Assembly (NCBI GenBank): GCA_965263035.1
Contig: OZ253580.1
Span: 1,152,001-1,216,000 of the forward strand
Direction: 5' to 3'
DNA length: 64,000 nt
Source of the DNA: Acidobacteriota bacterium
Lineage (GTDB): Bacteria; Acidobacteriota; UBA6911; RPQK01; JAJDTT01
This document shows positions 1,377 to 17,646 of the stretch, in pieces. Positions within the stretch are counted from its first letter, which is position 1. Every line of letters begins with the position of its first letter. Under the pieces are notes generated by a model. That model worked only from the letters and a program-made list of their open reading frames with translations. It had not been told where the DNA came from and ran no database searches. Made by a program: the position numbers and the translations under genes.

Positions 1377-4300
1377 TCAGTTCCGGGGGCTGCCACCCTT
1401 CACCGGAGCGGGGATCAGGGTCGGGCGTTCCACTTCCTGTACGGGACGGCGCCCCAGGAGCCATCGGGCAGCTCGTCCCAGATCCTCCAGAATCATGTAG
1501 GTGCACGGCACCAGAATCAGGATGACCGGAGTCGAGAATACGACGCCGAACGCCAGGGAAACAGCCATGGGGATGAGGAACTGGGCCTGCAGACTCGTTT
1601 CCAGGAGCAATGGAGTCAGGCCGGCGAAAGTGGTCAGGGAGGTGAGGAAGATGGGCCGGAACCGAGCCGCCCCAGCTGTCAGGATCGACTCTCGGAGCGG
1701 GACTCCGGCACGCTGTTTCCGGTTGACGTAGTCGACCAGGATCAGACTGTCGTTCACGACCACGCCCGCCAGGGCAACGATGCCGAACACGGACAGGATG
1801 CTCAGGTCCATTCCCAGGATCCTGTGGCCCAGAAAGGCGCCCACCAACCCGAAGGGAATCGCGCTCATGATGATCAGCGGCTGGAAGTAGGAGCGGAGAG
1901 GAATGGCCAACAATGCAAAGATGGCAGCCAGGGCCATGCCGAAACCTTGCAGGAGTCCGCTTACCGTCTCGCTCTGCTGCTCCTGCTCGCCCTCCAACGA
2001 ATAGCTCAGGCCCGGAAACTGCTGCAACAGCGAGGGAAGGTAGTCCGCCTCCAACTCCGCCAGAATTTCGTTGGAGTTGGCCCGTTGAGTGTCCACCTCC
2101 GCGGTCACGCTGATGGAGCGATTCCGGTCCACCCGGCGGATGGATGCGAAGCCACGGCTCAGTTCGGAATCGGCCACCACTGAAAAGGGAACCTCATCGC
2201 CGTCCGGGGTCCGGATCCGCATCCCCTCCATCTGCCCCAGGGAACGGCGTCGATCCGAGGGATACCGGACCATGATCTTGACCTCGTCCCGGCCCCGCTG
2301 AATCCGCTGGACCTCCTCCCCGTAGAAGGCTTGTCGGATCTGTCTTGCCAAGTCCTCTTGCGTCAGACCCAGCGACTCGGCGTCCGGATGAATCTTGAGC
2401 TTGATCTCCTGCTTACCGGCCCGGAAGGAATCGGCGATGTCGTAGACCCCCGCGTATTCGTTCAATTTCAGCTTGAACTTGTGCGCGGCCTCCTGCAGTC
2501 GGTTCAGGTCGGGACCGGAGAACTGAACATTGATGGGAGCTCCCGCGGCGAAGAGTGAGGCCGAGAAGCTGAGTTCCACGGCATCTGGGATGGTTCCCGT
2601 CAACTCCCGCCAGCGGTTGCCTATCTCGGTGCTGCTGAAGAGTCTGCCGTCTTGTGCCAGGGGCCGTTCTTCGGATGGCGCCAGTTCAATGTTCACCTCT
2701 CCCAGGTGGGCGCCGGTGAATCGGGACACGCCTCCGTTGTGTCGATTCTGAATGACGCGGGTGGGTTGATCCCCCACTGACGTGAGCACATGACGGAACA
2801 CGCTGGCCGAGCCGTCCCCCTGGCTGGACGAGTCGATCTCCTCCCGGAGCACCGAGGCGGCTCGCTCCACTTTCTCCATCACGCGGGCGGTGGTCTCGGC
2901 CGGTGTGCCCTGAGGCATGGTCAGAAAGGCCATCACGTTGTCCGCCTCCACCGGAGGGAAGAAATTGAACTTGATTCTTCCGCCCAGAATCATGCCGACG
3001 ACCAGCACCAAGATGGAGACTCCCAGGGCCGCCGTCAGGTAACGCCACTCGACGGCCACGCGCAGGAGGGGTTCGTAGACCCGCTTGACGAATCCTTTGA
3101 GCAGTCCTGAGATCAGGTCCTGAAGGCGGTTCCACAACCCGAACAATCCCCGTTTCCGCAGACTTTCGGAGCGTCTCAGGTGGGAGAGGTGATAGGGCAG
3201 GATGAGCAGGGACTCGACCAGCGAAAAGACCAGTGTGGGCAGGACCACCAGGGGAATGACCCGCATGATCTTCCCGGTGGGGCCTTCGATCATCAGCAGT
3301 GGGGAGAAGGCGGCCACCGTGGTCGCCACCGCAAAAAACACGGGAACCATCATCTCCTGTGTCCCGTCGATGACCGCCTGCAGCTTGGGCTTCCCCTGCT
3401 CGTATTGGGAAAAGATGTTCTCGCCGACGACAATGGCGTCGTCCACCACAATTCCCAGTACGACGATGAAGGCGAACAGGGAGATCAGGTTGATGGAGAC
3501 GTCCAGGTGGGGCAAAACCATGAGGCAGCCCAGAAACGAAATGGGAATGCCCAGGCTGACCCAGAATGCCAGGCCGACTCTCAGAAACAACGTCAGAGTC
3601 AGAACGACCAGCGCCAACCCCGCCAAGCCGTTCTTGATCAGCAGGTCGAGCCGGCTCCGCAGGATGCGGGAGTCGTCCTTCCACGTGGTCAGCGTCAGGC
3701 CTTCCGGCAACTGCAACTGTTTCTGCCTGACGTACTCGCGAACGGCGGCGGCAATCTCCAGAGCGCTCTGCCTCCCGACTCGGAAGACCTGGACCAGGAT
3801 GGCCGGCCGGCCGTCGAACCGGGCCGATTGATCGGTCTCGGCGAACCCGTCCACCACCCGGGCCACGTCTCCCAGCAGGACCCGGGTGCCGTCCCGTCCG
3901 GAGAGAAGCGTCAGTTCCTGGAAATCCTCTCCCACGTAGGCCTGACTATTGGTTCTCAGCAGGATCTCGCCCGCCTGAGTCTTCACCGAGCCCCCAGGGA
4001 GGTCCAGGGAAGATCGGCGGACCGCCCGGGCCACCTGATCGAAGGAAAGGCTGTGGCGGAGCAGGGCTTCCTCCGAGACCTCGATGGAGACTTCATAAGG
4101 GCGGGCGCTGGACAACTCGGCCTGGGTGATCCCGGGCAGGGAGGCGACCTCGTCCCGAACCTGCTCGGCGACCCGCTTGAGGGTCCGCTCGTCCGCCTGT
4201 CCCGAGACGGCTATGTTGATGACCTGATTGCGGACGATGGCCTCCTGGATGACCGGCTGCTCGGCCTCCTCCGGAAAGGTGCTGATGGCGTCCACCCGGG

Positions 4301-4631
4301 CCTTGACCTCGTCCAGGAGTTCACGGATGTCGGTCCCCTCCAGCAGTTCCACGTTCACGATGCCCATGGCCTCGGAGGCCGTCGACGTGATCCGCTTCAC
4401 TCCGGGAAGGCTTTGAACGGCCTCCTCGATCCGGATGCAGATTCCCTGTTCGACCTCTTCGGGTGCGGCGCCCGGATAGAGAACCGACACGCTGATCAGA
4501 TCCGTCGAGAACTCGGGGAAGACCTCCTTTCGAATCTCGGGGACGGAGAGGGTGCCGCCGACCAGGATCACGACCATCAGCAGGTTGGCCACGACCCCGT
4601 TGGACGCAAACCAGGAAACGAGTCCCTTCAT
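1377..4631 (-). CDS. RND efflux transporter permease (AcrB/AcrD/AcrF family), copy 1
   Basis: 1084 aa; N-terminal TM (VANLLMVVILVGG), GIVVDDAIVVGENI, RFRPIFLTSLTT; two-repeat RND layout. Confidence 0.95.
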   Translation of the reverse strand: MKGLVSWFASNGVVANLLMVVILVGGTLSVPEIRKEVFPEFSTDLISVSVLYPGAAPEEVEQGICIRIEEAVQSLPGVKRITSTASEAMGIVNVELLEGTDIRELLDEVKARVDAISTFPEEAEQPVIQEAIVRNQVINIAVSGQADERTLKRVAEQVRDEVASLPGITQAELSSARPYEVSIEVSEEALLRHSLSFDQVARAVRRSSLDLPGGSVKTQAGEILLRTNSQAYVGEDFQELTLLSGRDGTRVLLGDVARVVDGFAETDQSARFDGRPAILVQVFRVGRQSALEIAAAVREYVRQKQLQLPEGLTLTTWKDDSRILRSRLDLLIKNGLAGLALVVLTLTLFLRVGLAFWVSLGIPISFLGCLMVLPHLDVSINLISLFAFIVVLGIVVDDAIVVGENIFSQYEQGKPKLQAVIDGTQEMMVPVFFAVATTVAAFSPLLMIEGPTGKIMRVIPLVVLPTLVFSLVESLLILPYHLSHLRRSESLRKRGLFGLWNRLQDLISGLLKGFVKRVYEPLLRVAVEWRYLTAALGVSILVLVVGMILGGRIKFNFFPPVEADNVMAFLTMPQGTPAETTARVMEKVERAASVLREEIDSSSQGDGSASVFRHVLTSVGDQPTRVIQNRHNGGVSRFTGAHLGEVNIELAPSEERPLAQDGRLFSSTEIGNRWRELTGTIPDAVELSFSASLFAAGAPINVQFSGPDLNRLQEAAHKFKLKLNEYAGVYDIADSFRAGKQEIKLKIHPDAESLGLTQEDLARQIRQAFYGEEVQRIQRGRDEVKIMVRYPSDRRRSLGQMEGMRIRTPDGDEVPFSVVADSELSRGFASIRRVDRNRSISVTAEVDTQRANSNEILAELEADYLPSLLQQFPGLSYSLEGEQEQQSETVSGLLQGFGMALAAIFALLAIPLRSYFQPLIIMSAIPFGLVGAFLGHRILGMDLSILSVFGIVALAGVVVNDSLILVDYVNRKQRAGVPLRESILTAGAARFRPIFLTSLTTFAGLTPLLLETSLQAQFLIPMAVSLAFGVVFSTPVILILVPCTYMILEDLGRAARWLLGRRPVQEVERPTLIPAPVKGGSPRN

Positions 4632-4804
4632 GGTGACACCTTGGGACTGAAATCAGCCTGAACTTGGACCCTCATTCCGTCGACGACATTGGCGGGGGAC
4701 ACCTGTTCTCCCTCCTTCGGAACCGAGTCGATGGCGACCCTTACCCGTTCTCACCGCACGGAACGTGAGCGGCGCAGCCGGAGAGTGGACTCCGAGCCCA
4801 CGAA
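4531..4804 (-). repeat. Left copy of a decayed ~270-bp direct repeat: degenerate MFP 3' end (4628-4804) followed by the intact RND 5' end
   Basis: The minus strand reads FVGSESTLRLRRSRSVR*ERVRVAIDSVPKEGEQVSPANVVDGMRVQVQADFSPKVSP*. This aligns with the C-terminus of the MFP at 14102-15277 (VVDSESRLRFRHVNVVRLEREQVIIDSGLEEGELVSLA...VIDGMKVQIQEDSNP). Its TGA overlaps the RND ATG (ATGA). Confidence 0.85.
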
Positions 4805-5043
4805 CGGACTCAAGAAAACGATTATCCAGGAAACCGAATCCCGGTTCCAGATCACGAACGACCTGGCAACTAGTGTTTCCGAAACAGATTCGTCGCGTCA
4901 AATTCGCCGACGCCGTAGCGCATGCTCGGGACCCGAAGCGAAGCGTGGACTGCCGATTGAGCTTCGATTTTTCTCGTCAACTGCTTGAGGACGCACCGAG
5001 AAATACAGGCTATGCCCGAACGGACAGCTGCACGCGTGCGCGC

Positions 5044-6084
5044 TCAGCCGGATTCCCGAGGATCGGGATAGAACTGTTTGCAATAGCGCCGATAGATCCC
5101 GATCTCGCCGTCGGATCGACACAGACTGGGGCGGGATCGGTACCGTTTCCGGCTCCAGATCGCCACATCCTGAAGCACGTCGCGCTTCTGCGCCCTTATA
5201 AGGATTTTGTTCATGATCTTGGCGCGCAACCGCAACGGAACAAACCGCAAACCGACGATCGGCCGTTTCGGTTTGCGGATCTCCCGCACCTGCCCGGCCA
5301 GCACCAGATCGATGAGCGTGCCGTCGACGGGCGTTGCGAGCACCCACAAACGTACATCCATGCCGATGGAGCGCTCGTGAACATCCACGAACGAGTATCC
5401 CAATCCAATCACGCGGGTGACAACTGAGAAGTCCAATAGGATCGCCCTGATCCCCGCGATGGTCTGAGTTCGCTTGAAGTCAAAACAACTCGTGAGGCAG
5501 GCGCCGTCCACGGTGACCGGTTCGACCCGGCTGACATTGCTGTAGCCGTGCACGTACCGCAGGTGCGCCAGGTCCACGGAGTTCTCGGTCGTTTCCTGAG
5601 GATGGCCGGGAAACCGGATGGTCCGAAACCTCAATCTGCTCCAGTCGGTGCCACCCGGCGGGTCCTCGGGAAGGCTCCATTGCGGTGGCCGTCCATTGAT
5701 TCCCCACCAGGCGAAGACCATGCCAAGGACCTCCCGCGTCTCGAATACCCGCAGCTTGGCGGCCCTGGGGGCCGGGGCAAAGGGAGTGGCAACGCATTGT
5801 CCGCTGACGTCGAACTCGTAGCCGTGAAACGGACAGACGAGACAACCGTCCCGCACCCGGCCTCCGGCGGCGGGCCCCAGATCGGCCCCCAAGTGCGGAC
5901 AAACCGCCTCCGCCACGCAGATGTGCCCTCCACCGCCGCACCAGGCGACGATTTCTTCGCCCATCCAGGTCTTCTGAATCAGCCTTTCCTGCAGAATGGA
6001 CTGACGGCTGGCAACGAAGTACCAACCCTCGGGAAACGGGGATAGCAAGGAGGAATTGTCCGGCTCGAGACATCTTGCTGGCAT
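5044..6084 (-). CDS. Rieske [2Fe-2S] non-heme iron oxygenase/desaturase, KshA/Neverland (cholesterol 7-desaturase)-like
   Basis: PFPEGWY start motif, Rieske CPHLG...CPFHG, mononuclear Fe motif ENSVDLAHLRYVH, and C-terminal QDVAIWSRKRY...SDGEIGIYRRYCKQFY typical of the KshA/Neverland group. ATG at 6084 preferred over TTG at 6096. Confidence 0.85.
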   Translation of the reverse strand: MPARCLEPDNSSLLSPFPEGWYFVASRQSILQERLIQKTWMGEEIVAWCGGGGHICVAEAVCPHLGADLGPAAGGRVRDGCLVCPFHGYEFDVSGQCVATPFAPAPRAAKLRVFETREVLGMVFAWWGINGRPPQWSLPEDPPGGTDWSRLRFRTIRFPGHPQETTENSVDLAHLRYVHGYSNVSRVEPVTVDGACLTSCFDFKRTQTIAGIRAILLDFSVVTRVIGLGYSFVDVHERSIGMDVRLWVLATPVDGTLIDLVLAGQVREIRKPKRPIVGLRFVPLRLRAKIMNKILIRAQKRDVLQDVAIWSRKRYRSRPSLCRSDGEIGIYRRYCKQFYPDPRESG

Positions 6085-6516
6085 TTCCCACCGCAACGTT
6101 GTGTTCTGACGGCTGCGGTAACCTCCGAGCCAAGCGGCTGGCTTAAAAATACCGGAATACGGGTTTTTGATCGTATGCCGGGGTTCGAACAGAGGCGCAT
6201 CGCGAGATTATCCGTGACTGGAGTGAAACCCATGGCCGCGGCTTGGCGGTCACGCCACAAACGCGACTTCCCCTACCGGGGCCTTCGCCAGACGGGGCGC
6301 CAGACGGCGGGACAATGACGGCAGACGATTCTTGCCTCCCTGAAGCTGTCCCGAGGAGAGACGAAAGAGCGTCTCCGTTCTTTTTGTCGTCGACGATCCC
6401 ATCACTCCCTCGGCCTCGTGACACGTAACGCCTTTCTCGCCAAACTTCCAGTCGGGACCCCATCGTTTCACATCGGCCGGACCGGGAAACAAACCAGGCA
6501 GTCAAGCTTACGAATG

Positions 6517-6683
6517 CTAGGAGTCTGCGCGGTAGGAATGATCGTAGCGAGAAAGTGGGGAATCGAGGCCAGATTTTCTCGATGTGGAGGTGCATAGTTG
6601 TTCTATTCGCCGAGAAATCGGGGAAATATGGACCGATTCTACCGCTTTCGCAGTAGATCAATTTCTGCCGCGCAGGATCCTAG
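6517..6683. mobile_element. MITE family A, copy 1 (167 bp including CTAG at both ends)
   Basis: Imperfect TIRs CTAGGAGTCTGCGCGGTAGGAATGATC / rc CTAGGATCCTGCGCGGCAGAAATTGATC. A near-identical copy lies at 17480-17646 (about 9 mismatches counted by eye). Confidence 0.9.
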
Positions 6684-7146
6684 GATAAACCGTTTGTTTT
6701 AAAGGTTTTATGTCACAGGTCCATGCTTATCTCGATTCCTGGACACTATCAAGTTTGCCATCCGTCATTGGCGTAACGGCCCGCCAGCGTGGCTGGGGAT
6801 CCCCTCCACGAAACGACCGGAAAAACCGCGGGATGCAGCCATGAGATCACGCCGGCAAGCCGTGTCGGCGTTGCCATTGCCATTTGTCGCCGGCCACCTT
6901 GCTACGAATTGTTTGCCGATGCGAATCCATCCGGTTTCCGAATCGATCCCCCGATCACCCGAAAACTTCACTGGCGACGCCGCTTTCAGCCGCTGTGTGC
7001 CGGCGGCGGCGTGGAGGAATTTGAACCTCCCGGCACCCGACCGGGTCCTGGGAGGCTTGTGGACCCTCCTCGAGCCGGTCGCTTTTCCAACCGGCGGCTC
7101 CGCCCGTGCGGCGAACCTCCGAGCCGCGTCAATATCTACCGAGTAG

Positions 7147-8370
7147 ATCACCAGGGGCAAGATAGCAGGCTACTTGGTTGCGGTTGTCATCCTTGCCGGT
7201 TCCGGTGCCCTGGCCTATTACCTGGTGTCGCTGGCACCCGAACCGGAGCGCAGTGAGCCGCCTCCCCAAATCCCGTTCGTACAGACCGGCCGGGTTGCGG
7301 CCGGCTCCGGCGCCATACCCGTGTACGGAGCCGGCACGGTGCGGTCCAGCGCGGAAGTCGACATTGCTCCGCTCGTCAGCGGCCGGGTCGTCTGGATGGA
7401 TCCGGGATTCCAGAGCGGCGGGCGGATCGCGTCGGGTCAACCGATCTTGCGCATCGATAACGCCGACTAATTGCAACGCTTGCGGGAGGCTGAGGCCGAT
7501 CTCGAAGCCCGTCGGGTAGCCCTCTCTGTGGCCCAGGAACAAGGGGCGTTCCCCCGCACTGAATTCGAGGAGTACTCCCGCCAGCAACTCGAGGCGGGAG
7601 CTCCCGTAGGCGAACCGGATCCCTTGGCTCTACGGGCACCGGAGATCAAGGCGGCTCGAGCCGCGCTGCACCGCGCCGAGGTCCAGATTGCCGGCGCCAA
7701 GCTGGCACTGTCCCGAACCGAACTGCGGGCGCCGTTTGACGGCTACGTGCGCGACGAGTCGGTGGATGCGGGACAGTTTCTGGCTGCTGGTCAGACCGTC
7801 GGGCGGCTGCTCGCCGCCGACGCCGTCGAGGTGGTCGTTCCCCTGTCCGACGCCAACGCCGCAATGATCCCAGGGCTTTGGAAACTTCGTGCGGGGGACG
7901 CCGAACGGCGCGTGACCGCCCGCGTGACCGCCAAATTCGACGACGACAGCTATGCCTGGAAGGGCTACGTCGACCGGGCTGAAATCTCAGTCGACGAGCA
8001 GACGCGAACCATTGACGCGATCGTACGCGTGCCCAACCCCTTTTCCGCGGGTGTTCCGGCGAACGGGTCCGGCGGTCTCGGCGGCGTAACCCCGCTCTTG
8101 ATAGGCAAGTTCGTGGAAGTAGAGATCCAGGGTCTTGCACCTGAGAGCTATTTCCGGATACCGCGGCCGGCACTGCGACCCGGCAACGAGGTGTGGACGG
8201 CAGGCAAAGACCAAAAGGTGAGTATTGTCCCGGTGCGTGTCCTGCAGCGGATCAACGATGAGGCCTTCGTAATGGGTGCTCTCGAAGACGGGCAGTTGGT
8301 GATCACCGGCGGTATCCAGTTCGTCACTGAAGACATGGTTGTACGGACCGGGAACGGCGTAATGCGATGA
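7147..8370 (+). pseudogene. RND membrane fusion protein (MFP) copy 2, broken by an in-frame TAA
   Basis: ORFs 7174-7470 and 7471-8370 are in the same frame, separated only by TAA at 7468-7470 (IDNAD*LQRL, where Tyr is expected; MFP1 has IDATDYHLQV). MFP motifs VSGRVVW, RTELRAPFDG and PLLIGKFVEVEIQG. The original start may be a mutated ATG (ATC at 7147). Confidence 0.85.
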
Positions 8371-11300
8371 GTCCGAAGGGAGAACTGCACGGGGAGCCGG
8401 GCGGTCCCATTGCCATCATGGCGAGCAACCGCGTCGCGGCCAATCTGTTGATGATCAGCATATTGGCGTTCGGCCTCGTGGCGTTTGGGGCTTTGGAGCG
8501 GGAAGCCTGGCCGACGGTTCCCTTCAATACCATCGAAGTGTCCGTGGTCTATCCCGGTGCCGCGCCCGAGGAGGTGGAGGAGTCGATCGTTGTCAAGATC
8601 GAGGAGCAGGTCGAGGCGCTGCCGGATGTCAAGGCGGTCAAGTCCATAGCGGCCCCGGGACTGGCATCGGTCAGGGTCGAATTGAAGACCGGCGCGGACA
8701 TCAACGAGGCCATGGACGAAGTCAAGTCCGCGGTCGCGCGCATCCCGTCGTTTCCCGGCGCAGCCGAGCGTCCGCAGTTCAGGGAGATGGACAATCGCAC
8801 CAGCATGATCCGTCTGATCGTGTTTGGCGACATCCCCGAGCGCTCGCTGAAGGAGTTGGCCTACCAGATCGAAGACGACTTGGGGTCGCTGCCCAACGTG
8901 TCGCACGTCGAGACCACCGGGACGAGAAACTACGAGATCTCGATCGAAGTGCCGCTCGTCCGCCTGCGCGCCTTCGGGCTGACGCTCGACGATATCGCGG
9001 ATGCGGTTCGCCGCAGTTCCCTGGACCTTTCAGCCGGCCGGATTGATACGCGGGTCGCCGAGGTGCGCGTCCGGACCATCGGCCAGAGCTACGATCAGCT
9101 CGACTTCGAGGAGATCGTCGTTGTCGCCCGGAACGACGGCACGATTATCCACCTCGGAGACATCGCCGAGGTGCGCGATGCCTTCCAGGACACCGACCTC
9201 ATCGTCCGGCACCAAGGGAAGCCGGCGGTCTTTGTCGAGGTCTACCGGGCCGAGGGCGAGCAGGTGATGGAGCTTGCGGGAGCCGTACACGAGCACATCG
9301 CGAACGAGATCGTCCCATCTCTGCCCCATGGCGTCGGGATCACCATCAGGAACGACGACTCCCAGACCTACTCGGAGCGGGCCGACATCCTCCGCAAGAA
9401 CGGTCTTCTGGGACTTATTCTGGTGTTCGTCGCATTGGCCCTGTTTCTCGAGATACGGCTCGCTTTGTGGGTCGTCGCCGGCCTGGTCACCTCGGGCGCC
9501 GGGGCCTTGGCCGTGATGCTGGCGCTCGACCTCGCGATCAATATCATTTCACTGTTCGCGTTCGTTCTGGCCATCGGCATCATCGTCGACGATGCCATTG
9601 TCGTGGCCGAGCACATCCACTACGAACGCATGCGGGGCGTTCCGGGAGTCGCCGCGGCGATCCGGGGCACGCGACGGATCAAGAAGGCGTTGACCTTCGC
9701 GGTTCTCACTTCGGTGGCGGCGTTCACGCCCCTGCTCTTCATCCCCGGGGGCATTGGAGAAGTGTGGAGCGCTTTGCCGGTGATCATCATCGGCATGCTG
9801 CTGATCTCGCTGGTAGAAGCGCTCCTGATACTGCCGAGCCACCTGTCCCACTTGCAGGGGCCGGAATGGGTGCCGGCCAACCTGGTGGATCGATTCTTCT
9901 CGTGTGTCCGACACTATATGGACCGAGGGCTGAACGGGTTCGTGAATGGCCCTCTGGATCGAGCGCTGCGCCTCGCGACGGATCATCCCGCCATCGTGGT
10001 GGCGGGGATCGTCGGACTATTCATTGTCAGCCTGTCGCTGGTACCGGCCGGTATTGTCACGACGACCTTTGCCCCCGTCGTGGAGGGTGACCTCGTCACC
10101 GCCACTCTCGAAATGCCGGACGGGACACCAGCCGAGCGGACCTACGAGGTGGCGATGGAACTGGAGCGGGCGGGAAGGCGGGTTCTGGAACGCCTGGATC
10201 GGGATCGACCGGACGATTTGCCCTCGTTGCTGTCGGGCGTGATCGTAACCGTCGGCCAGAGACCTCGCGTGGAAGGGGGAGGGCTTGACCCGACCCCCAC
10301 CATGAATCCGCAGTCAAACATCGCCTCCATCGAATTCAAGCTCTTGAGTTCCCAGCAACGGGAAATGTCCACCATTGCCATCATGCAGGCCTGGCGGGAC
10401 GAGGTCGGGATCCTCCCCTACGTTCGCGGGATCGCCTTCAGCGGCGAGGTCATCGATCTCGGCAGTCCCGTGGAGGCAGTGCTGTCGCATCCGGATCCGG
10501 AGCGCCTGTTGGAAATCGCCGACTCGGTAGTCGCCGGCCTTCGCAGTGTGGCGGGTGTCTTTGATGTCCGGTCCGATCATACGCCGGGCGTCGGGGAGAT
10601 TCAGCTGGCGTTGCGGCCGGAGGCGCGAACGCTCGGTCTCACGATCGAGGATTTAGCGCTGCAGGCGCGGGCGGCGTTCTTCGGCGTGGAGGCGCTGAGG
10701 GTACAGCGCCATCGCGAAGAGGTCCGGGTCTACGCGCGCCTGCCCGGCGACGAGCGCGATGCGATCACGGATGTCGAGGGCTACCTGATCCGCACCCGGT
10801 CGGGAGGACAGGTGCCGCTCAGCCAGGTGGCATCGATGAGAATGGGCACCTCACCGCCGTCGATCCGGCGCCAGGACGGTCAGCGCGTCGTCACGGTGAC
10901 GGCGGACGTGGACGAGAATGTGATTTCAGGCGGCGAAGCGAATGACATCCTCGAGAACACGATCCTCGCGCAACTGACCGCCGCCGCACCCGAGCTGACC
11001 TTCTCCTTTGGCGGCGAACAGCAGCAGCAGTTGGAGTCGCTGGACGCTCTGAACCGCGGGTTCATGCTCGCCATGTTCGCGATTTTCGGGCTGCTGGCCC
11101 TTTCCCTGGGGTCCTACGTCAAACCGTTTCTCGTGATGGCCATCATTCCGTTCGGTCTGATCGGCGTCGTCCTCGGCCACTTCGTATTGGGAGTCTCCAT
11201 AAGTGCCGCATCGTTCATGGGCTTCTTCGGGCTCAGCGGCGTCACCATCAACGATTCGCTGGTCATGATCGACTTCATCGACCAGCGGCGCAGGGAGGGC

Positions 11301-11558
11301 GCCGCTCCGAAGACGGCGATCATCGATGGCGCCAAGGGACGCTTCCGGCCCATCATCCTGACCTCAGTGACCACATTTCTCGGCTTCACGCCGCTCATTC
11401 TCGAACGGGCCATCCAGGCGCAGTTCCTGGTCCCCTTCGCCGCGTCGCTCGGGGTCCGAATCATGATTACAACCGGGATCCTGATGTTGCTCGTGCCGGC
11501 ACTTATGGCTGTCTATCTGCGTGCCAACTCGCGGCGCAGGGCAGCGGGGGCCATGTAA
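8367..11558 (+). CDS. RND efflux transporter permease, copy 2
   Basis: 1063 aa; GIIVDDAIVVAEHI, GRFRPIILTSVTT; same subfamily as 1377-4631; ATGA overlap with the MFP2 stop. Confidence 0.95.
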   Translation: MSPKGELHGEPGGPIAIMASNRVAANLLMISILAFGLVAFGALEREAWPTVPFNTIEVSVVYPGAAPEEVEESIVVKIEEQVEALPDVKAVKSIAAPGLASVRVELKTGADINEAMDEVKSAVARIPSFPGAAERPQFREMDNRTSMIRLIVFGDIPERSLKELAYQIEDDLGSLPNVSHVETTGTRNYEISIEVPLVRLRAFGLTLDDIADAVRRSSLDLSAGRIDTRVAEVRVRTIGQSYDQLDFEEIVVVARNDGTIIHLGDIAEVRDAFQDTDLIVRHQGKPAVFVEVYRAEGEQVMELAGAVHEHIANEIVPSLPHGVGITIRNDDSQTYSERADILRKNGLLGLILVFVALALFLEIRLALWVVAGLVTSGAGALAVMLALDLAINIISLFAFVLAIGIIVDDAIVVAEHIHYERMRGVPGVAAAIRGTRRIKKALTFAVLTSVAAFTPLLFIPGGIGEVWSALPVIIIGMLLISLVEALLILPSHLSHLQGPEWVPANLVDRFFSCVRHYMDRGLNGFVNGPLDRALRLATDHPAIVVAGIVGLFIVSLSLVPAGIVTTTFAPVVEGDLVTATLEMPDGTPAERTYEVAMELERAGRRVLERLDRDRPDDLPSLLSGVIVTVGQRPRVEGGGLDPTPTMNPQSNIASIEFKLLSSQQREMSTIAIMQAWRDEVGILPYVRGIAFSGEVIDLGSPVEAVLSHPDPERLLEIADSVVAGLRSVAGVFDVRSDHTPGVGEIQLALRPEARTLGLTIEDLALQARAAFFGVEALRVQRHREEVRVYARLPGDERDAITDVEGYLIRTRSGGQVPLSQVASMRMGTSPPSIRRQDGQRVVTVTADVDENVISGGEANDILENTILAQLTAAAPELTFSFGGEQQQQLESLDALNRGFMLAMFAIFGLLALSLGSYVKPFLVMAIIPFGLIGVVLGHFVLGVSISAASFMGFFGLSGVTINDSLVMIDFIDQRRREGAAPKTAIIDGAKGRFRPIILTSVTTFLGFTPLILERAIQAQFLVPFAASLGVRIMITTGILMLLVPALMAVYLRANSRRRAAGAM

Positions 11559-11574
11559 CCTGAACTTCCAGAGC

Positions 11575-11595
11575 CCGACGCTGCAGCAGCGTCGG
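11575..11595. terminator. Hairpin between the convergent RND2 and P450 genes
   Basis: CCGACGCTG-CAG-CAGCGTCGG, a perfect 9-bp stem; no clear U-tract. Confidence 0.4.
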
Positions 11596-11722
11596 TTCCG
11601 TCAGTCATTGCAGCCTGCCCTGTACTGCCGTGCGCAAGTGTGCACGCATTCTCGATGGCGTCCGTCATGACGCACTTAGAGTCATGCGGTTCCAGCCGTG
11701 GCGCTGATGCGCGCTTGCGTGC

Positions 11723-13744
11723 TCAGGCCGAGTTTCTGACTTCAGCCACGCGTAGCTTCAGCTTCTTGTCGGGGGCAGCTGTCGGGAACGGATTGATTCC
11801 GAGTTCGTAGTTTTCGGGCACCAGTTCCAGCTTCATGTGGTAAGCGATGAGCAGGAGGTTGACGACCATCTGAAGTTCCACCCACCGACTTCCCAGGCAA
11901 GTGTGCGTGCCCAGGCCATAGGGAGCGTAGGCACCCGGCGCCAGATGCTCTGCCCGACCCGGCAGGTAGCGGTCTATGTCGAATTTCAGCGGATCCTTGA
12001 ACAGATCGCCGTCGTAGTGGGACGCCGTCTGGCAAACCAACAGTCGCGTTTGAGCAGGTATTTCGAAGCCCCTGACGATGCACTGGTTCATGACCGTCCT
12101 CAGCTGCCAGGGAATCACCGGGTACAGACGCGCGGACTCCATGCAGAGGCGGTGGGTGACGTCGATGCTGTGTTGGGTAAAGTCCCCCGCTTCCGGTTCA
12201 CGCCCGTTACCGAAGAACGACCCGGCTTCTTGCCGGACCTTCGCGTATAGATCCGGGTGGCGAACCATGGAATAGACTGCGAAGCCAAGCCCGCTGCCGA
12301 GATAGAGGCTGGCGATCATTGACGCGACGAAGGGGAAGACGAGGTCCGTTTCCGGAAGGAACTGCGGATCGTTGTGATGGAGTCCGAGGATTGCGTCGGC
12401 AAGATCCGGCGGCTGACCCTTCCTCTGCGCCGGCGTGTGGGATGCTTGAATCGACTCCTGGAGTTCACGGATACGCTTGCCGTAACGCTTCATCTTGGGC
12501 GTTGACATCATGAATTTCGGCAACGCGCCCTGAACGTGCGTCACCAGCGCACGATGTTCAAATTCCAGGAGTTCGTCGACGTAGTGACTGCAATCCACTC
12601 CTATCATCAGATGCGAGATCTGACTGCTGACGTGGGTCTGGAACGTCCCGGTCGCACGGAAAACGTCGCCTTCATTCCATAGCCTGAGCGATCGCCTGCA
12701 GTGGTGGATCAACTCTGGTAGCCGTCGCGCAAGCGTGGTTCGGGAATAGGCACTCTGTAGCGACTTGCGCATCTTGTAGTGTTCGGCGCCATCCATGCCC
12801 GGCAGGGTTCGGGATGCGCCGAACGCGTGTTCGAGATCCTGGATGTAGTCCTTCGACCGAAGGTAGAACCGCCCTTTCTTGTTGACCCACCGATTGGTCT
12901 CCGGCCCGATCAAGGCAACAACAGTTGCCTTGTCCATTTTGAAGGGAAGCTCGACGACCGGCCCGTACTTCCGGAAGATGTCGTACATCGCCTTTGGAAT
13001 GTTGCACGTGCGGAAGTCACGCTGTCGCAGGATGTCGAAGATCCGGAGCCTTGGGATGGGCTTGGTTCGAAGAACACGGCGGGTTCTCGGTGTGGCGGTG
13101 CTCTCCCTCACCGCGCTGGCAACCGATCGCCCTACCAGATCCAGCTTGGCGATCGTCTCGATCCGCTCGAGCTTCTCCTCATATTCCTCTGGCGGAAGCA
13201 GCAGCTTGAAACCGTCGCATGTATGCATCAAGGCAACGAGGATGGCGTCTCTCGGGTCCGGAATGAAATCGTTCAAGATGACGCTCAGGACTCTTGCCTT
13301 GGCTTCCTGGCGGGTCCTTTCGTCGGAGATCGGATAGTGTCCGGAACGTGAAACGGAGCGCGAGAGCGTCCAGAATCCGCCGCTCTCGTAGTCGAGGATC
13401 CCCCTCTCCACCAGGCGATCGAGTGTGGCCGAGACGATTTCTTCGGAACGGGCCGTGTTCCGTTCGATCCAGTACTGCGAATCCCGGGTCTCCCGGGATT
13501 CGGCGATTTCGTTGAGCGTGGGGTCGAGCAGGTCGTCTCCGGTTGGACTGGGATCAACCAGATACAACGCGTCCAAATCGGTGTCGATTCGATCCTCCAG
13601 CGCAAGGTCGGCGATTACAGCTCCCGCCATGACGCAGGAGAAATTCCAGCCTGGAACCATTTCCAGATAGCCGGTCCGTTCGTTGAGCATCAGGAGGATC
13701 AGCTCTTCGGCAAGGCGTATCGGGAACTCGGGGATCCTTCTCAT
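11723..13744 (-). CDS. GPP34 (GOLPH3-like) domain-cytochrome P450 fusion protein
   Basis: The N-terminal ~215 aa look like GPP34 (LAEELILLML...GAVIADLALEDRID...TGDDLLDPTL...LVERGIL). The C-terminal P450 has ESARLYP (ExxR), FDIDRY (PERF-equivalent) and the heme loop YGLGTHTCLG. Confidence 0.85.
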   Translation of the reverse strand: MRRIPEFPIRLAEELILLMLNERTGYLEMVPGWNFSCVMAGAVIADLALEDRIDTDLDALYLVDPSPTGDDLLDPTLNEIAESRETRDSQYWIERNTARSEEIVSATLDRLVERGILDYESGGFWTLSRSVSRSGHYPISDERTRQEAKARVLSVILNDFIPDPRDAILVALMHTCDGFKLLLPPEEYEEKLERIETIAKLDLVGRSVASAVRESTATPRTRRVLRTKPIPRLRIFDILRQRDFRTCNIPKAMYDIFRKYGPVVELPFKMDKATVVALIGPETNRWVNKKGRFYLRSKDYIQDLEHAFGASRTLPGMDGAEHYKMRKSLQSAYSRTTLARRLPELIHHCRRSLRLWNEGDVFRATGTFQTHVSSQISHLMIGVDCSHYVDELLEFEHRALVTHVQGALPKFMMSTPKMKRYGKRIRELQESIQASHTPAQRKGQPPDLADAILGLHHNDPQFLPETDLVFPFVASMIASLYLGSGLGFAVYSMVRHPDLYAKVRQEAGSFFGNGREPEAGDFTQHSIDVTHRLCMESARLYPVIPWQLRTVMNQCIVRGFEIPAQTRLLVCQTASHYDGDLFKDPLKFDIDRYLPGRAEHLAPGAYAPYGLGTHTCLGSRWVELQMVVNLLLIAYHMKLELVPENYELGINPFPTAAPDKKLKLRVAEVRNSA

Positions 13745-13963
13745 AAATCTCCAGTCCGGATTGGACGGCTCAAGGCCTGGGCCTTCGCCGGGAGCCGGTC
13801 AGCCGGACGCGCTGCTCATAAAGCCTTGCAGCACAAACGTCATTGCCCCCGTCCGACCAAGCGCCAGCCATCGGGAGACGGGGCCAGCGAGCGGGCGGAT
13901 GGCTCCGTTTCCCTCTATATAGCATACTCCTAGCCGAATTTGAGGATGGCGTCGTCCAGCAGG

Positions 13964-14008
13964 GGGAAGCGGGCCGTCTTCGACTACATCGAGGGGTTCT
14001 ACAACCGG
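13964..14008 (+). mobile_element. IS3-family transposase C-terminal remnant
   Basis: Reads GKRAVFDYIEGFYNR, matching the IS3 OrfB 'xIFxYIExFYNxxR' motif. It abuts the right-hand repeat. Only ~45 bp remain. Confidence 0.55.
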
Positions 14009-14275
14009 ATCCCCGAGAACGAAGCGAGCAACGCCGATCAGGATCAGGGCCCTCAGCCAGTTGGCCACGATACCGGATGATGCGGCCCGATCATGGTGAC
14101 TTCAGGGGTTGGAATCCTCCTGAATTTGGACCTTCATCCCGTCGATGACCGTGGCCAGGGTGGCCAGCGAAACCAGTTCTCCCTCTTCCAGACCCGAATC
14201 GATGATGACCTGTTCCCGCTCCAGCCGCACGACGTTCACATGGCGGAAACGGAGCCTGGACTCCGAGTCCACGAC
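14006..14275 (-). repeat. Right copy of the decayed direct repeat: intact MFP 3' end followed by a degenerate RND 5' end (14006-14094)
   Basis: After the MFP stop comes GTCACCATGA, as before RND1, then a frameshifted GIVANWLRALILIGV. This aligns with RND1 GVVANLLMVVILVGG at DNA and protein level. Confidence 0.8.
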
Positions 14276-15277
14276 CAACACCTGATCTTCCCCCCGAAGT
14301 GCCGCCCGGGGCAAGGTAACGACATTCTCCAGCCGGCGGCCCTGGATTTCGGCTTCCACGAACATGCCCACGGCGAGGGGAGGACGGTCCGGATCCGGAC
14401 CCCGGCCATAGGGGTCAGCCACCTGAGCGATGGCGTGGATCATCCGGGTCTGAGGATCGATGGTCCCATCCGTTCGCACGATCCTCCCGTTCCATGAATG
14501 CTTCCGCTGGCCGAACTCGGCCCGCAGGAGAACGACGGGATGGCGTTTCTCCGACCCGTCGCCGCGATAGCCGAGGGGCAGGTCCACATAGGCCAACTCC
14601 TCGTCGGGTAGCGGCAGCCGGATCTCGGCATGGTCCACGGCATAGATCGTGGCCACCGGAGTCCCCGGGGTCACGTATTGGCCGATGTCCACGTTTTTTC
14701 GAAGGACCCGCCCCGCGAACGGAGCGGCGATCCTGGTCTTCTCCAGATTTCGCCTGGCCTGGGCCAAAGCGGCCTGAGCCGAAGAAAGCGCGGCCTTGGC
14801 CCGAGCGATCTGGGGCACTCGTCGCAACAGGGGGAGGGCCTCCCCTTCTCCCAGACTCTCCCATTCTTTGCGGGCGACCTCGGCCTGGGCCTCTTCGGTC
14901 TCCAAAGACAGTTGAGCCTGCGCGATCTGAGACTCGGCCTGAACCACCTGCAGGTGGTAGTCCGTGGCGTCGATCCTGAGGAGTTGACCTCCCGCCTCGA
15001 AGAACCCCCCGTCCGCGAGAGAGGGGGAGACTTCCAGGACCCGTCCCGCGATCTCGGGAAACAAAGTGGTCTGGGTTCGGGGAGCCACAGTCCCCTGGGA
15101 CATGACCTTCAGCCGGAGTGTCTGAAGCTGCACGGGAACGACCCGGATCACCGGAACCGGAATCTCCGGAGGCCGGGTCTCGACCACGGGGCGGTCGTTG
15201 AATATCTTCCAGGCCCACGTCGAGGCAACGGCCAAAGTCGCCATGGGCAGCAGAACCTTCAGCAGAAGCTTGATCAA
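14102..15277 (-). CDS. RND membrane fusion protein (MFP) copy 1
   Basis: 391 aa; N-terminal TM, EIAGRVLEV, KTRIAAPFAGRV, PLAVGMFVEAEIQG. Confidence 0.93.
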   Translation of the reverse strand: MIKLLLKVLLPMATLAVASTWAWKIFNDRPVVETRPPEIPVPVIRVVPVQLQTLRLKVMSQGTVAPRTQTTLFPEIAGRVLEVSPSLADGGFFEAGGQLLRIDATDYHLQVVQAESQIAQAQLSLETEEAQAEVARKEWESLGEGEALPLLRRVPQIARAKAALSSAQAALAQARRNLEKTRIAAPFAGRVLRKNVDIGQYVTPGTPVATIYAVDHAEIRLPLPDEELAYVDLPLGYRGDGSEKRHPVVLLRAEFGQRKHSWNGRIVRTDGTIDPQTRMIHAIAQVADPYGRGPDPDRPPLAVGMFVEAEIQGRRLENVVTLPRAALRGEDQVLVVDSESRLRFRHVNVVRLEREQVIIDSGLEEGELVSLATLATVIDGMKVQIQEDSNP

Positions 15278-16740
15278 TTGCCGTTCTCTCCGGTGAGAGT
15301 CACCGGGAGAAGTGCTCCCGGGGCACCCGGCGGGGCGCCCGGCTCGAAGCCGCCTCCCAGCGCCAAGTGGAGATCGATCCGGTTTTCCAGCAAGAGGCGC
15401 TGCAGGGTCAGGATCTGACTCTTGGAGTTGAGGATCCGACGATCCGTCTGCAACACCACCAGCATATCCCCCAGGCCATGGCGATAGCGAAACTGGGCCT
15501 GGTCCCGGGCCGTCTCGGCTTCCACGACTGATTCTTCCAGTTCACGCAGCCGATCTCGCAAGAAACTTTCAACCGAAAGGGCCGTCTCAACCTCGCCGAA
15601 GGCCTGCAGGACTGCACCAGCGTAGGTCTCCAGGATTTCCTGGGACCGGCCTTGGGCAATGTCGACCTGACGCTTGAGGCGTCCTCCCTGAAAGAGGGGC
15701 TGGACCAGGTTGCCCAGCAGGCTCCAGACGGCGTAGTCCCCATTCACCAGGCTCAACAGACCTTTGGTGGCCGTTCCACCGGCCGTGGTGAGGCTCAGTC
15801 GAGGGTGAAGGGCCGATTGAGCCTGGACGATTCCGACATCGGAGGCCAGCAGACGCCGCTGCGCCGCGATGAGATCGGGTCGGCGCGTCAGGAGCTGGGA
15901 GGGGACGCCGGCCGGAACGCCGGAGGAAACCTGGGGAAGGCTCTCCCGAACTTGCAGCTCCCCGTAGGGATAGCGTCCGACCAGGAGTTCGACTTGGCGA
16001 TTCCCGCGGTCCAATTGCTCGCGGCGAAGATGGACGGCGGATTCAGCGGCAGAAATGTCTGCCTGGACCAGACTGATTTCCACGGCCTGCCCCAGACCCG
16101 CCTCAAAGCGATTTCTGAGCCACTGGGAGGTCGCCTCATAACTGGCCACCGTCTCCCGGGCCAGGGCCAACTGAAGATTTGCCTCCGAGCAGACAAACCA
16201 CGCCTTGGCCGTCTGGCCCGCCAACGAATGCCTCGCCGCAGCAAGATCCGCTGCATGCGCGGAGGCGAGAGCACCGGCTTGAATCTCGCCGCTACGGATT
16301 CTCCCCCAGAGGTCCGCCTCCCAGTTGACGTCCAGGGAGGCACCGAGGTTGGTAAACGTTGCCCGCGGCACCCGGCCCTCGAAACCGGGTATGGGAAAAC
16401 CGATAAAGTTTTGCCGCTGACGGCGGCCGTTCAAGCTGAGTCCGAGCGACGGAATCCGGTCGGCACCGGCAATCTGGGCTTCGATCAGGGCCGTCTCCAA
16501 GCGGGCGGCGACGGCCCGAAGTTGAGGATTGTGGCGGAGCGTTTCCTCGATCAACGCATCCAATTGCGGATCCTGAAACTGTTTCCACCAATGGACATCG
16601 ACCGTTCCCTCCGCCGCCGTTCCCGAATTCCACGCCTCTGGAATCGGCAGGCTCGGCTGCCGTTCGGGTGGGACCGCGGTCCGGACGCATCCGGCTCCCG
16701 GAAGGAGCATGGCCAGAAAAAGAAGGTGCGTGGATCTCAT
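15274..16740 (-). CDS. Outer membrane efflux lipoprotein (NodT/OprM/TolC family)
   Basis: Lipobox GAGC, WEADLWGRIR, PSQLLTRRPDL, LHLALGGG. Confidence 0.95.
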   Translation of the reverse strand: MRSTHLLFLAMLLPGAGCVRTAVPPERQPSLPIPEAWNSGTAAEGTVDVHWWKQFQDPQLDALIEETLRHNPQLRAVAARLETALIEAQIAGADRIPSLGLSLNGRRQRQNFIGFPIPGFEGRVPRATFTNLGASLDVNWEADLWGRIRSGEIQAGALASAHAADLAAARHSLAGQTAKAWFVCSEANLQLALARETVASYEATSQWLRNRFEAGLGQAVEISLVQADISAAESAVHLRREQLDRGNRQVELLVGRYPYGELQVRESLPQVSSGVPAGVPSQLLTRRPDLIAAQRRLLASDVGIVQAQSALHPRLSLTTAGGTATKGLLSLVNGDYAVWSLLGNLVQPLFQGGRLKRQVDIAQGRSQEILETYAGAVLQAFGEVETALSVESFLRDRLRELEESVVEAETARDQAQFRYRHGLGDMLVVLQTDRRILNSKSQILTLQRLLLENRIDLHLALGGGFEPGAPPGAPGALLPVTLTGENGN

Positions 16741-17402
16741 CCGTAATTTTCCTGTGATGGAATCGGAGTCCGAAACCCGGCTGCCAGAAAACTGACAAGA
16801 CGAGCGACCACCTCGTCCACCTGGGACGGTTCCGGGACATCCAAGAAGAGGTTCTCCAGGTTTTCCAGATTCTTCCAGTCCGCGATCACGTGAAGCGTGT
16901 GGGACATGGCGCCCACCATGAAATGAAACCTCCAGAAAGCTTCTTCTCTGGGCAAATCGGGGAGCCTTGGGCTCAGGGCTCCGGAGAAACGCTCGATGAC
17001 CTCGGCGAACTGTCCATAGATCATCTCCCGAATCGCTTCGTCAGGAGAGTTGAAAGCCCGGGAGAGAAGCTGCATGAAGCGCATGCTCCCTCTCTCGGGA
17101 TCCCGGATCAGCTGTACCGGCGGTCGGATGAACGCCTCCAAGATCTTCTCCAGGGAGGGCACGGCCCCATCGGCGTCAACCTGACACTGGTCCAAGAGCG
17201 TCAGGCGCTGCCGGTTGAGAGGAGACAGACGCAGGGCGAAGAGCTCCTGAATGAGTCGATCCTTGGAGCCGAAGTGATAGTGCATGGCGGCCAGATTCAC
17301 ATTGGCCCGCGAGGTGATCATGCGAACCGAGGTCGCGGAAAATCCCCGAGCTGCGAAGAGTCCTTCCGCCGCCGCCAGGATCCTGGTTCTGGTGTCCTGC
17401 AT
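16737..17402 (-). CDS. TetR-family regulator, PsrA-like
   Basis: TRTRILAAAEGLFAARGFSATSVRMITSRANVNLAAMHYHFGSK HTH; C-terminal AFWRFHFMVGAM. ATG at 17402. Confidence 0.9.
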   Translation of the reverse strand: MQDTRTRILAAAEGLFAARGFSATSVRMITSRANVNLAAMHYHFGSKDRLIQELFALRLSPLNRQRLTLLDQCQVDADGAVPSLEKILEAFIRPPVQLIRDPERGSMRFMQLLSRAFNSPDEAIREMIYGQFAEVIERFSGALSPRLPDLPREEAFWRFHFMVGAMSHTLHVIADWKNLENLENLFLDVPEPSQVDEVVARLVSFLAAGFRTPIPSQENYG

Positions 17403-17414
17403 GATCCCCGAATA

Positions 17415-17469
17415 AAACAACCGTTTAAAACGTACGATCGTTCTACAAAAATTTCGTCCCGACTGTCAA
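17415..17469 (-). promoter_or_regulatory. Sigma70 promoter of the tetR-omf-mfp operon with a PsrA-type operator
   Basis: TTGACA (17469-17464), 18-bp spacer, TAGAAC. The palindrome AAAC-N4-GTTT at 17415-17426 lies between the -10 and the ATG and matches the PsrA box core. Confidence 0.65.
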
Positions 17470-17479
17470 ATGCTGCCAA

Positions 17480-17646
17480 CTAGGAGGCTGCGCTGTAGAA
17501 ATGATCGTAGCGAGAAAGTGGGGAATCGAGGCCGGATTTTCTCGATTTGGAGGTGCATAGTTGTTCTATTCGCCGAGAAATCGAGGAAATATGGACCGAT
17601 TCTACCGCTTTCGCAGTAGGTCAATTTCTGCGGCGCAGGCTCCTAG
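17480..17646. mobile_element. MITE family A, copy 2 (167 bp)
   Basis: CTAGGAGGCTGCGC...GCGCAGGCTCCTAG; direct repeat of 6517-6683. Confidence 0.9.

Follow-up and report, generated by a model that had tools for sequence, protein, structure and literature searches.

A GPP34-cytochrome P450 fusion with a tyrosine in place of the I-helix acid-alcohol pair, found beside Rieske oxygenase and RND pump genes in an Acidobacteriota genome

The fusion protein and its I-helix

We analyzed a stretch of 64,000 nucleotides (the window) from an Acidobacteriota bacterium (GenBank assembly GCA_965263035.1, contig OZ253580.1, positions 1,152,001 to 1,216,000), focusing on a reverse-strand gene that joins a GPP34 domain, homologous to eukaryotic GOLPH3 and Vps74, to a cytochrome P450. 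The gene and its landmarks are listed below in window coordinates, with isoelectric points (pI) where calculated.

11723..13744, reverse strand: GPP34-P450 fusion gene (P0001), an open reading frame (ORF) with an ATG start and a translation of 673 amino acids (aa)
13103..13714, reverse strand: GPP34 domain, residues 11-214 (PF05719, E 9.6e-36)
13016..13102, reverse strand: basic linker, residues 215-243 (by composition 9/29 Lys or Arg, pI 12)
11792..13015, reverse strand: cytochrome P450 domain, residues 244-651 (PF00067, E 7.9e-32; pI 9.1)
12299..12313, reverse strand: I-helix motif A478-S-L-Y481-L482, replacing AGx(D/E)T (translation and alignments)
11897..11899, reverse strand: codon of the heme ligand Cys616 in the loop YGLGTHTCLG (translation; invariant in a 48-sequence alignment)

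The fusion is real, and its two domains, catalytic cysteine and ExxR motif are intact. In the Pfam search, PF05719 aligned over profile positions 1-200 of 201 (124.2 bits, cut-off 29.1) and PF00067 scored 111.1 bits (cut-off 22.8); NCBIfam returned P450 matches for the fusion protein, all of them sub-threshold. Translation of the DNA confirmed APYGLGTHTCLGS at the heme loop and VASMIASLYLGSGLG at the I-helix, and E536 and R539 of ExxR, R592, G610 and C616 were invariant in an alignment of 48 full-length relatives. The initial annotation had described a 673-aa fusion of a GPP34-like domain, spanning residues 1-215, with a complete P450 bearing ExxR and the heme loop; Pfam, translation and the invariant residues bear this out. 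The architecture is also conserved in other genomes, as all 120 clusters among the matches listed (71–100% identity, 671–704 aa) carry both Pfam domains.

From the 48-sequence alignment, AlphaFold2 gave a model with a mean predicted local distance difference test score (pLDDT) of 89.5 and a predicted template modeling score of 0.84. In this model, the linker is coil (pLDDT ∼70 in the block 221–230), and residues 465–495, which contain the I-helix motif, form a single unbroken helix at pLDDT ∼96–98, so that the structure prediction proposed for this region in the initial annotation gave a continuous helix. The P450 fold was confirmed by VIA-align (root-mean-square deviation, rmsd, 2.9–3.0 over 416–435 aligned residues; Z 37.6, 37.1 and 37.0 for the leading rows) and by Foldseek, with target-normalized TM-scores of 0.78–0.85 to solved P450s; both searches used the full model and were filled by P450 rows. 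ESM Atlas, queried with the P450 part, returned generic P450 clusters only. We found no N-terminal signal or transmembrane stretch in the fusion protein, in which the GPP34 fold begins at about residue 8–11 and, of all 19-residue segments, the I-helix is the most hydrophobic.

The acid-alcohol pair (A/G)Gx(D/E)T is typical of P450s, though not obligatory, and the initial annotation had noted its absence here, on which four alignments agree. MAFFT of 48 fusions places A478-S-L-Y481-L482 on AGxDT, and a second MAFFT alignment of 99 sequences opens a one-residue gap on the acid, so that Y481 falls in the Thr column. HMMER against Methylococcus capsulatus CYP51 sets Y481 on His260 and L482 on Thr261, and hhalign of Tyr-type against canonical profiles sets Y481 on Asp with the Thr column gapped. 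In all four, canonical relatives have one residue more than the fusion between PETDL and HPDL; the alignments differ only on the position of the missing residue, which leaves the deletion site ambiguous, and none of them yields a D/E-T pair in the fusion I-helix. The tyrosine is kept in 120/120 PETD-anchored close homologues (P0001–P0121, at least 71% identical to the query, with P0055 left out for want of the anchor), where it is followed by Leu in 119 and Met in one, and the canonical Cys loop (F/Y/W)GxGxHxCxG is present in 120 of these 121 proteins. Judged by sequence, this P450, with Tyr-Leu where others have His-Thr or Asp-Thr, is a new active-site variant. With the pair gone and a strictly conserved tyrosine standing there instead, the enzyme probably does something other than ordinary proton-relay monooxygenation.

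Two active-site types and a CYP51-like scaffold

Judged from their P450 domains, the fusions fall into two groups, one with canonical AGxDT and the other of Tyr type. We combined seven close homologues with 92 representatives of at least 400 aa, kept the 81 rows with at least 380 residues in the P450 region (18 fragments were dropped) and, after taking out the columns of the I-helix motif, built a quick, unrooted IQ-TREE phylogeny with SH-aLRT support only. A branch with SH-aLRT 100 separates 16 rows from 65. All rows on the smaller side are one residue shorter, 13 with Tyr at the acid position and three with Asn or Arg, and 60 of the 65 on the other side have (D/E/H)-T. The query lies in a nine-row clade (support 99) with AS(I/L)Y(L/I) throughout except for one AAIYL row, and AGHYT forms (P0124, P0170) bridge the two I-helix motifs. 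Since AGx(D/E)T is the norm of the P450 superfamily, we take the Tyr type as the derived state, the unrooted tree itself giving no direction. One family member, P0127 (872 aa), carries two tandem GPP34 domains ahead of its P450 domain.

A word-indexed search returned 1270 proteins at E ≤ 0.001 among 8000 candidates scored, and an exhaustive search of representatives gave 360 clusters at E ≤ 1e-30, with full-length fusions down to ∼26% identity. Proteins 70–79% identical to the query occur in metagenome-assembled genomes (MAGs) labeled Bryobacterales, Acidobacteriota or Terriglobia, Gammaproteobacteria or Pseudomonadales, Rhodothermales, and Gemmatimonadaceae, and a Caldilineaceae record holds a 51% identical protein. 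The isolate names of several of the closest MAGs (SB0661_bin and similar) follow the sponge-MAG naming used in PMC11706023. Among 61 relatives searched, a close full-length orthologue was found in 6/8 other species of the genus and, with the same query, in 0/6 genomes of the sister genus; across an even sample of the phylum, the fusion was patchy (13/401 genomes, 4/229 genera). The genome under study, a single contig of 6.2 Mb at 97% completeness, has a single GPP34 match and three P450 loci, and one congener (G004) has one Tyr-type and two canonical copies.

The domain combination has been published before. Ferreira et al. (2025, Microbiome 13:4; PMC11706023) define GPP34_L as GPP34 plus cytochrome P450 and describe 656 such proteins as monophyletic, spread over many phyla and confined to sponge symbionts. 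The fusion has both GPP34_L domains (PF05719, PF00067) in the same order, falls with its 673 aa in the same length class (620–700 aa) and shares the multi-phylum spread. We found no biochemical study in the literature on GPP34/GOLPH3-P450 fusions; the initial annotation, which knew of no characterized example, was therefore right as to biochemistry and has been overtaken as to architecture. GPP34_L is treated by Ferreira et al. as one group, with binding of phosphatidylinositol 4-phosphate (PI4P) proposed, whereas we find a split into canonical and Tyr types with differing neighbors.

To place the Tyr type among solved P450s, a profile was built from 14 Tyr-type fusions and run against the PDB. 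Its best match was M. capsulatus CYP51 (6mi0, 7jj1, 6mcw; E 2.4e-40, 141.7 bits), the next family scoring 110.4, in an alignment that begins only at residue 338 and that sets Y481-L482-G483 on His260-Thr261-Ser262 and V401 on Glu178. In CYP51, His260 is the signature histidine of the proton delivery network, salt-bridged to Glu178, and the -HT(t/s)- triad is a requirement of the family (Lamb et al., PMC7947880). The fusion shares with M. capsulatus CYP51 (CYP51fx, PDB 6MI0/6MCW) the type of Cys loop and differs in having Y481-L482-G483 for the triad and V401 for the glutamate of the His260/Glu178 pair. The fusion partner differs as well, being a C-terminal ferredoxin in M. capsulatus and an N-terminal GPP34 domain here.

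By fold, the top VIA-align rows were CYP46A1 (Z 37.6), M. capsulatus CYP51 (37.1; rmsd 3.0 over 433 residues), CYP184A1 (37.0), human CYP51 (36.4) and CYP120A1 (36.2). Sequence identity to 6mcw in structural alignments was 16–19%, and P450 nomenclature places proteins in the same family at >40%. By these comparisons, the domain appears to use a CYP51-like scaffold yet falls outside CYP51 on both triad and family identity.

Several known P450s also dispense with the Asp/Glu-Thr pair, among them CYP74, CYP8A and P450eryF, of which P450eryF lacks the Thr and is still a monooxygenase. To our knowledge, the AS(I/L)Y(L/M)G of the fusion matches no replacement motif of these three or of CYP152, and the comparisons show no sequence relationship of the fusion to any of the four beyond the missing pair. 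CYP152 belongs to the P450 peroxygenases, which likewise lack the pair (PMC10988616). This precedent, together with the loss of the pair and of a counterpart to CYP51 Glu178, fits a P450 that no longer activates oxygen and instead rearranges oxygenated lipids without a partner, or acts as a heme or lipid sensor or as a pump chaperone. Set against this is the ordinary, redox-partner-dependent (F/Y)GxGxHxCxG loop retained in all but one of the close homologues, as well as the example of P450eryF, and we regard such a loss of oxygen activation as quite unlikely.

A portable island in a resident pump operon

The fusion lies in a segment that is missing from two congeners. The genes of this segment and of the operon around it are as follows, with MFP#1 and MFP#2 denoting the two periplasmic adaptors.

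4804..14004, no strand assigned: island of ∼9.2 kb (Rieske gene, MFP#2, RND#1, fusion), absent in G007 and G006
5044..6096, reverse strand: Rieske [2Fe-2S] plus KshA_C oxygenase, 350 aa (Rieske PF00355 E 6.2e-15; KshA_C PF19298 E 1.6e-25)
7159..8370, forward strand: MFP#2, periplasmic adaptor of the island pump (tblastn in a single frame, 55% over seed residues 3-396)
8367..11558, forward strand: RND#1, island permease of the AcrB family, convergent to the fusion gene (ACR_tran E 2.9e-153)
1377..4631, reverse strand: RND#2, resident permease, split from its adaptor by the island (ACR_tran E 8.1e-163)
14102..15277, reverse strand: MFP#1, resident adaptor directly upstream of the fusion (RND_mfp TIGR01730, 158.6 bits)
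15274..16740, reverse strand: resident outer-membrane factor (OMF) of NodT type (TIGR01845, 283 bits; OEP Pfam match)
16737..17420, reverse strand: resident TetR regulator (TetR_N and TetR_C_30 by Pfam; PsrA-like at 139.6 bits, below the cut-off of 300)

The congeners G007 and G006 have no fusion gene, and their orthologues of MFP#1 (93–94% identical) and RND#2 (92–93%) lie ∼10 nt apart; blastn aligns G007 to the window in two collinear blocks (window 17472–14005 and 4803–1). Given that these blocks flank 4804–14004, we conclude that 9.2 kb were inserted into a resident tripartite pump operon; a deletion of the same 9.2 kb in G007 and G006 is less likely. A stretch of ∼280 nt from the operon junction occurs at both island edges (4521–4803 and 14005–14287), its copies 68% identical to each other and 81–82% to G007; this may be a relic of an integration event in which related pump operons recombined. 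Conservation follows the same boundaries. The fusion, RND#1 and the Rieske gene are 69–84% identical across phyla, except for the Rieske gene in Gammaproteobacteria (56%, 2/13 loci), and RND#2, MFP#1 and the OMF drop to 29–41% outside the genus; the resident TetR has no match in other phyla and reaches 40% in other Acidobacteriota. As these patterns fit an insertion, TetR, OMF and MFP#1 would adjoin the fusion by accident of the insertion site, and RND#1, MFP#2 and the Rieske gene are, by these sequence comparisons, its true traveling companions.

The Rieske gene is the only KshA_C match in the genome, and among the 61 relatives it occurs in exactly those complete genomes that carry the fusion (G000–G005). 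Its product has KshA (4qdc, E 1.3e-23) as best PDB match, and it is not the SdmA equivalog NF052579 (25.6 bits against a cut-off of 600, over the Rieske part only). Two Rieske orthologues contain one internal stop each (G001:C1:1880031-1881071 and G003:C1:2600249-2601295). The best PDB matches of RND#1 are multidrug RND pumps. MFP#2 has an in-frame TAA at 7468–7470, where 23/23 homologues have Tyr or Phe; either the assembly is in error or this is a true nonsense mutation, and the island pump would then lack its adaptor.

We also looked at how these genes accompany the fusion elsewhere. Flanks of 8 kb on each side were searched by tblastn with seed proteins derived from the loci (E ≤ 1e-8, a single segment covering ≥40% of the seed) in 37 Tyr-type loci, namely the window and 36 others, with the I-helix checked in each; three loci were set aside as truncated (L039), canonical (L050) or GPP34 only (L051). 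An adaptor was found in 25/37 Tyr-type loci, an RND permease and a KshA-like Rieske oxygenase in 23 each, an OMF in 19, a sterol methyltransferase (SMT; Sterol_MT_C plus Methyltransf_11) in 12, TetR in seven and an FAD amine-oxidase-type oxidoreductase in six. At least one partner was present in 34/37, a pump part in 32, an enzyme partner in 28 and both in 26, and the three partnerless loci (L027, L038, L046) have almost no flank downstream of the fusion. The Rieske gene was also present in 3/3 further Tyr-type metagenome loci. By the same search, none of the 13 canonical-type loci (L050, L054–L065) had any of the partner genes, nor did the two canonical paralogues of G004. Gene order varies among the loci of Acidobacteriota, Gammaproteobacteria and Rhodothermales, so that inheritance of a single arrangement does not by itself account for the linkage. 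The SMT partner matches Sterol_MT_C at 61.7 bits against a cut-off of 21.7.

A scan of the 37 loci for conserved small ORFs of 45–140 aa, such as ferredoxins, returned only shadows inside large genes. The lack of a conserved ferredoxin-like ORF adds to the case for a P450 that has given up oxygen activation; a housekeeping ferredoxin encoded elsewhere in the genome may instead supply electrons, which weakens it. A further candidate partner, the cluster c6 (a 349-aa ORF in 10 loci), was rejected as an antisense shadow of the Rieske gene, with which its coordinates coincide in every locus.

The canonical-type fusions (L054–L065, L071) adjoin genes for sulfotransferase, Acyl_transf_3, EryCIII-like glycosyltransferase and PhyH proteins, not pumps, and in G004 a sulfotransferase gene follows a canonical fusion after 12 nt. 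This suggests that canonical-type loci are modules of hydroxylation followed by sulfation, acylation or glycosylation.

Contigs from RNA libraries cover the gene. In two metatranscriptome-library runs of one study, contigs ∼99% identical to the window cover the whole fusion gene and run into MFP#1, as a 3348-nt contig at 11690–15037 in run X16 and as contigs of 945 nt (11230–12174) and 3097 nt (12146–15242) in run X15. Two runs of a second study, labeled sponge metagenome, gave pieces of 155–355 nt. RNA libraries may contain DNA, and a contig over two genes does not amount to a single transcript. RND#1 (8367–11558) had little or no RNA-library contig cover, an absence that we do not count as evidence.

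Other features of the window were recorded as well. Within the genus, the fusion is 75–76% identical to its orthologues (loci L021–L023, L036 and L043 compared), against 87–88% for RND#1 and 92–93% for RND#2, and it is equally close (77–79%) to Rhodothermales and to other acidobacterial copies; this stronger divergence than that of its neighbors hints at replacement by a foreign allele. A 168-nt repeat lies inside the island (6517–6684) and again at 17480–17647 (95% identical), with at least 40 near-identical copies in the genome; when folded it forms a single long hairpin (−43.9 kcal/mol, z −9.3), has terminal inverted repeats and no Rfam match, and looks like a miniature inverted-repeat transposable element. 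The ORFs at 6143–6661 (reverse), 6789–7256 (forward), 4765–5427 (forward) and 5480–6133 (reverse) were discarded as repeat-derived or as shadows of MFP#2 or the Rieske gene. A scan of 11400–14300 gave no promoter-like sites and two terminator-like sites, both on the wrong strand, against 2.3 expected; a search for short inverted repeats as operators yielded nothing usable, and Rfam had no match on 4600–18000.

Substrate, role of the GPP34 domain and meaning for sponge symbionts

Genes for sterol synthesis were not found in this genome with the queries used. The single contig gave no SQHop_cyclase_N match, only a 28-bit partial SQHop_cyclase_C match, and no Sterol_MT_C or ERG4_ERG24 match, control genomes likewise giving none for either of the last two. 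An exogenous, host-derived substrate is then the simpler assumption, and from gene content it seems more likely than a sterol made de novo. The sterol gene clusters published for sponge symbionts (Brown et al., 2023, PMC10070321; Kelly et al., 2022, PMC9531527) resemble the island in their horizontal, multi-phylum spread, and as described there they set SMT beside Rieske-type genes, as do some Tyr-type loci. They hold a cyclase, CYP51, ERG24 and sdmAB and are read as serving de novo synthesis, whereas the island here has no cyclase. The available text of Brown et al. mentions neither P450 (0 occurrences of the term) nor GPP34.

The missing sterol genes would also suit a role in detoxification, with P450 and Rieske oxygenase modifying a toxic, hydrophobic metabolite of host or microbes other than a sterol (a terpenoid or alkaloid of the sponge, for example), the RND pump expelling it and the SMTs being passengers. 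The multidrug HAE-1 type of the pumps, the adjacent TetR repressor and the greater frequency of pump parts than of SMT (32/37 against 12/37 loci) all agree with this. The closest solved relative by profile, in contrast, is CYP51, the Rieske partner is of the steroid-type KshA class by both Pfam and best PDB match, the SMT partner carries a well-scoring Sterol_MT_C domain, and the 70–79% conservation across phyla suggests one defined substrate. On this evidence, we consider detoxification of a non-sterol unlikely.

The GPP34 domain bears on another proposal, that of Ferreira et al. (2025), in which GPP34 is secreted, binds PI4P of the host and, as an effector, keeps phagosomes from maturing, with the P450 as an accessory. 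Homology to PI4P-binding GOLPH3 and Vps74 speaks for it (sequence matches to GOLPH3 3kn1 at E 3.4e-7 and to Vps74 2zii at E 8e-6), as do the strong enrichment of the family in sponge symbionts reported in that paper (PMC11706023) and the patchy occurrence in the phylum noted above. The Pfam GPP34 match spans the whole domain, as in GOLPH3 (3KN1) and Vps74 (2ZII), and in the model of the full-length protein, the only form modeled, the N-domain consists of helices and a β-hairpin at 117–127 (DSSP strands 117–120 and 124–127), which occupies the place of the GOLPH3 β3/β4 hairpin.

The pocket itself fares differently. PI4P is bound in GOLPH3 by W81, R90, R171 and R174 (Wood et al., 2009, PMC2806290), and our HMMER alignment with full-length GOLPH3 matches only W81 (1/4), as W33, which is kept in the Tyr-type group. 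R90 corresponds to A40 (Ala in 41/48 family members), R171 to E101 (Asp or Glu in 33/48) and R174 to V104 (hydrophobic in 14/14 Tyr-type sequences), a 10-residue gap near the R171/R174 site weakening that part of the alignment. In contrast to GOLPH3 and Vps74, the fusion is bacterial, cytoplasmic, enzyme-linked and acidic in its GPP34 domain (pI 4.55), and the membrane targeting suggested in the initial annotation is accordingly doubtful as far as it would run through a GOLPH3-like phosphoinositide site. The protein also has no N-terminal signal or hydrophobic segment for secretion, its neighbors are oxygenase and pump genes rather than secretion genes, and neither sterol nor efflux figures in the main text or text-form supplement of PMC11706023. 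A PI4P-binding effector seems very improbable to us for this fusion. Rare GPP34-Rieske fusions, also reported in PMC11706023, fit GPP34 as an accessory module for lipid oxygenases.

On balance, we favor, with some confidence, a cytoplasmic GPP34_L protein of Tyr type, related to CYP51 with its proton-delivery residues replaced, that acts on a sterol-like lipid and is coupled to efflux. It builds on the observed domains, motif, clade split, cross-phylum gene linkage, insertion and presence in RNA libraries. The enzyme would act at the inner membrane face on a sterol-like, probably host-derived polycyclic lipid and would have as its partner the KshA-like Rieske oxygenase encoded on this mobile island, joined in other genomes by SMT and the FAD oxidoreductase; the co-traveling RND pump may handle substrate or product, and GPP34, rather than reading PI4P, would serve as a docking module for lipid, membrane or partner. 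Of the membrane-targeted P450 acting on a lipid or sterol envisaged in the initial annotation, the substrate class thus finds circumstantial support (the CYP51 profile match, the Rieske/KshA_C gene of the island and SMT in 12/37 loci), the targeting being the doubtful part.

Several observations weigh against this sterol-like lipid reading. The substrate class depends on neighbors and on distant similarity (16–21% identity to solved P450s), and by fold CYP51 and CYP46A1 lie within ∼1 Z of the non-sterol CYP184A1 and CYP120A1, Foldseek being likewise unselective. SMT is present in 12/37 loci only and absent from this genome, and the pumps are of generic multidrug RND type. OMF, TetR and MFP#1 are resident genes, so that this part of the linkage is incidental, and the stop in MFP#2 means that coupling to the island's own pump may be broken here. 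The loci are related by descent or transfer, and their counts are not independent events. The islands hold no conserved redox-partner gene, which fits unusual chemistry without showing it, and the RNA-library contigs are consistent with expression without proving transcription.

A bolder version, which we think unlikely, would see a CYP51 descendant whose dismantled relay supports redox-partner-independent or peroxo-type chemistry on sterols, with GPP34 bringing the enzyme to the membrane or passing its product to the co-transferred RND pump, and the product exported as a symbiosis currency or signal. Such peroxo-type chemistry might comprise rearrangement, C-C cleavage or desaturation of host or symbiont sterols. 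If this were true, the exported sterol derivative could contribute to the unusual sterol inventory of sponges, a fossil biomarker.

Three elements of our results were not found in print: the existence of two active-site types within GPP34_L, the dismantling of a CYP51-type proton relay alongside a strictly conserved tyrosine, and the exclusive linkage of the Tyr type to a portable Rieske-plus-RND island, with or without SMT and FAD genes. The main text of PMC11706023 has zero occurrences of sterol, steroid, efflux or RND and mentions neither the I-helix nor Rieske partners; its text-form supplement, as distinct from the PDF figures, contains no sterol, efflux or AcrB. A literature search from 2023 on for GPP34 together with sterol returned one unrelated paper only.

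GPP34 proteins and bacterial sterol genes have been published separately as genomic hallmarks of sponge symbionts, and the locus described here connects the two. Most likely, the protein known as a symbiosis marker is a lipid enzyme rather than a phosphoinositide-binding effector, and the Tyr-type subclade, with its rebuilt oxygen-activation site and its portable oxygenase-plus-pump island, offers a testable alternative to phagosome evasion. It also makes a new P450 active-site variant available to enzymologists. Finally, the island is a candidate for how symbionts may modify the sterols of their sponge, and this matters where steranes from sponges are taken as evidence of early animals.

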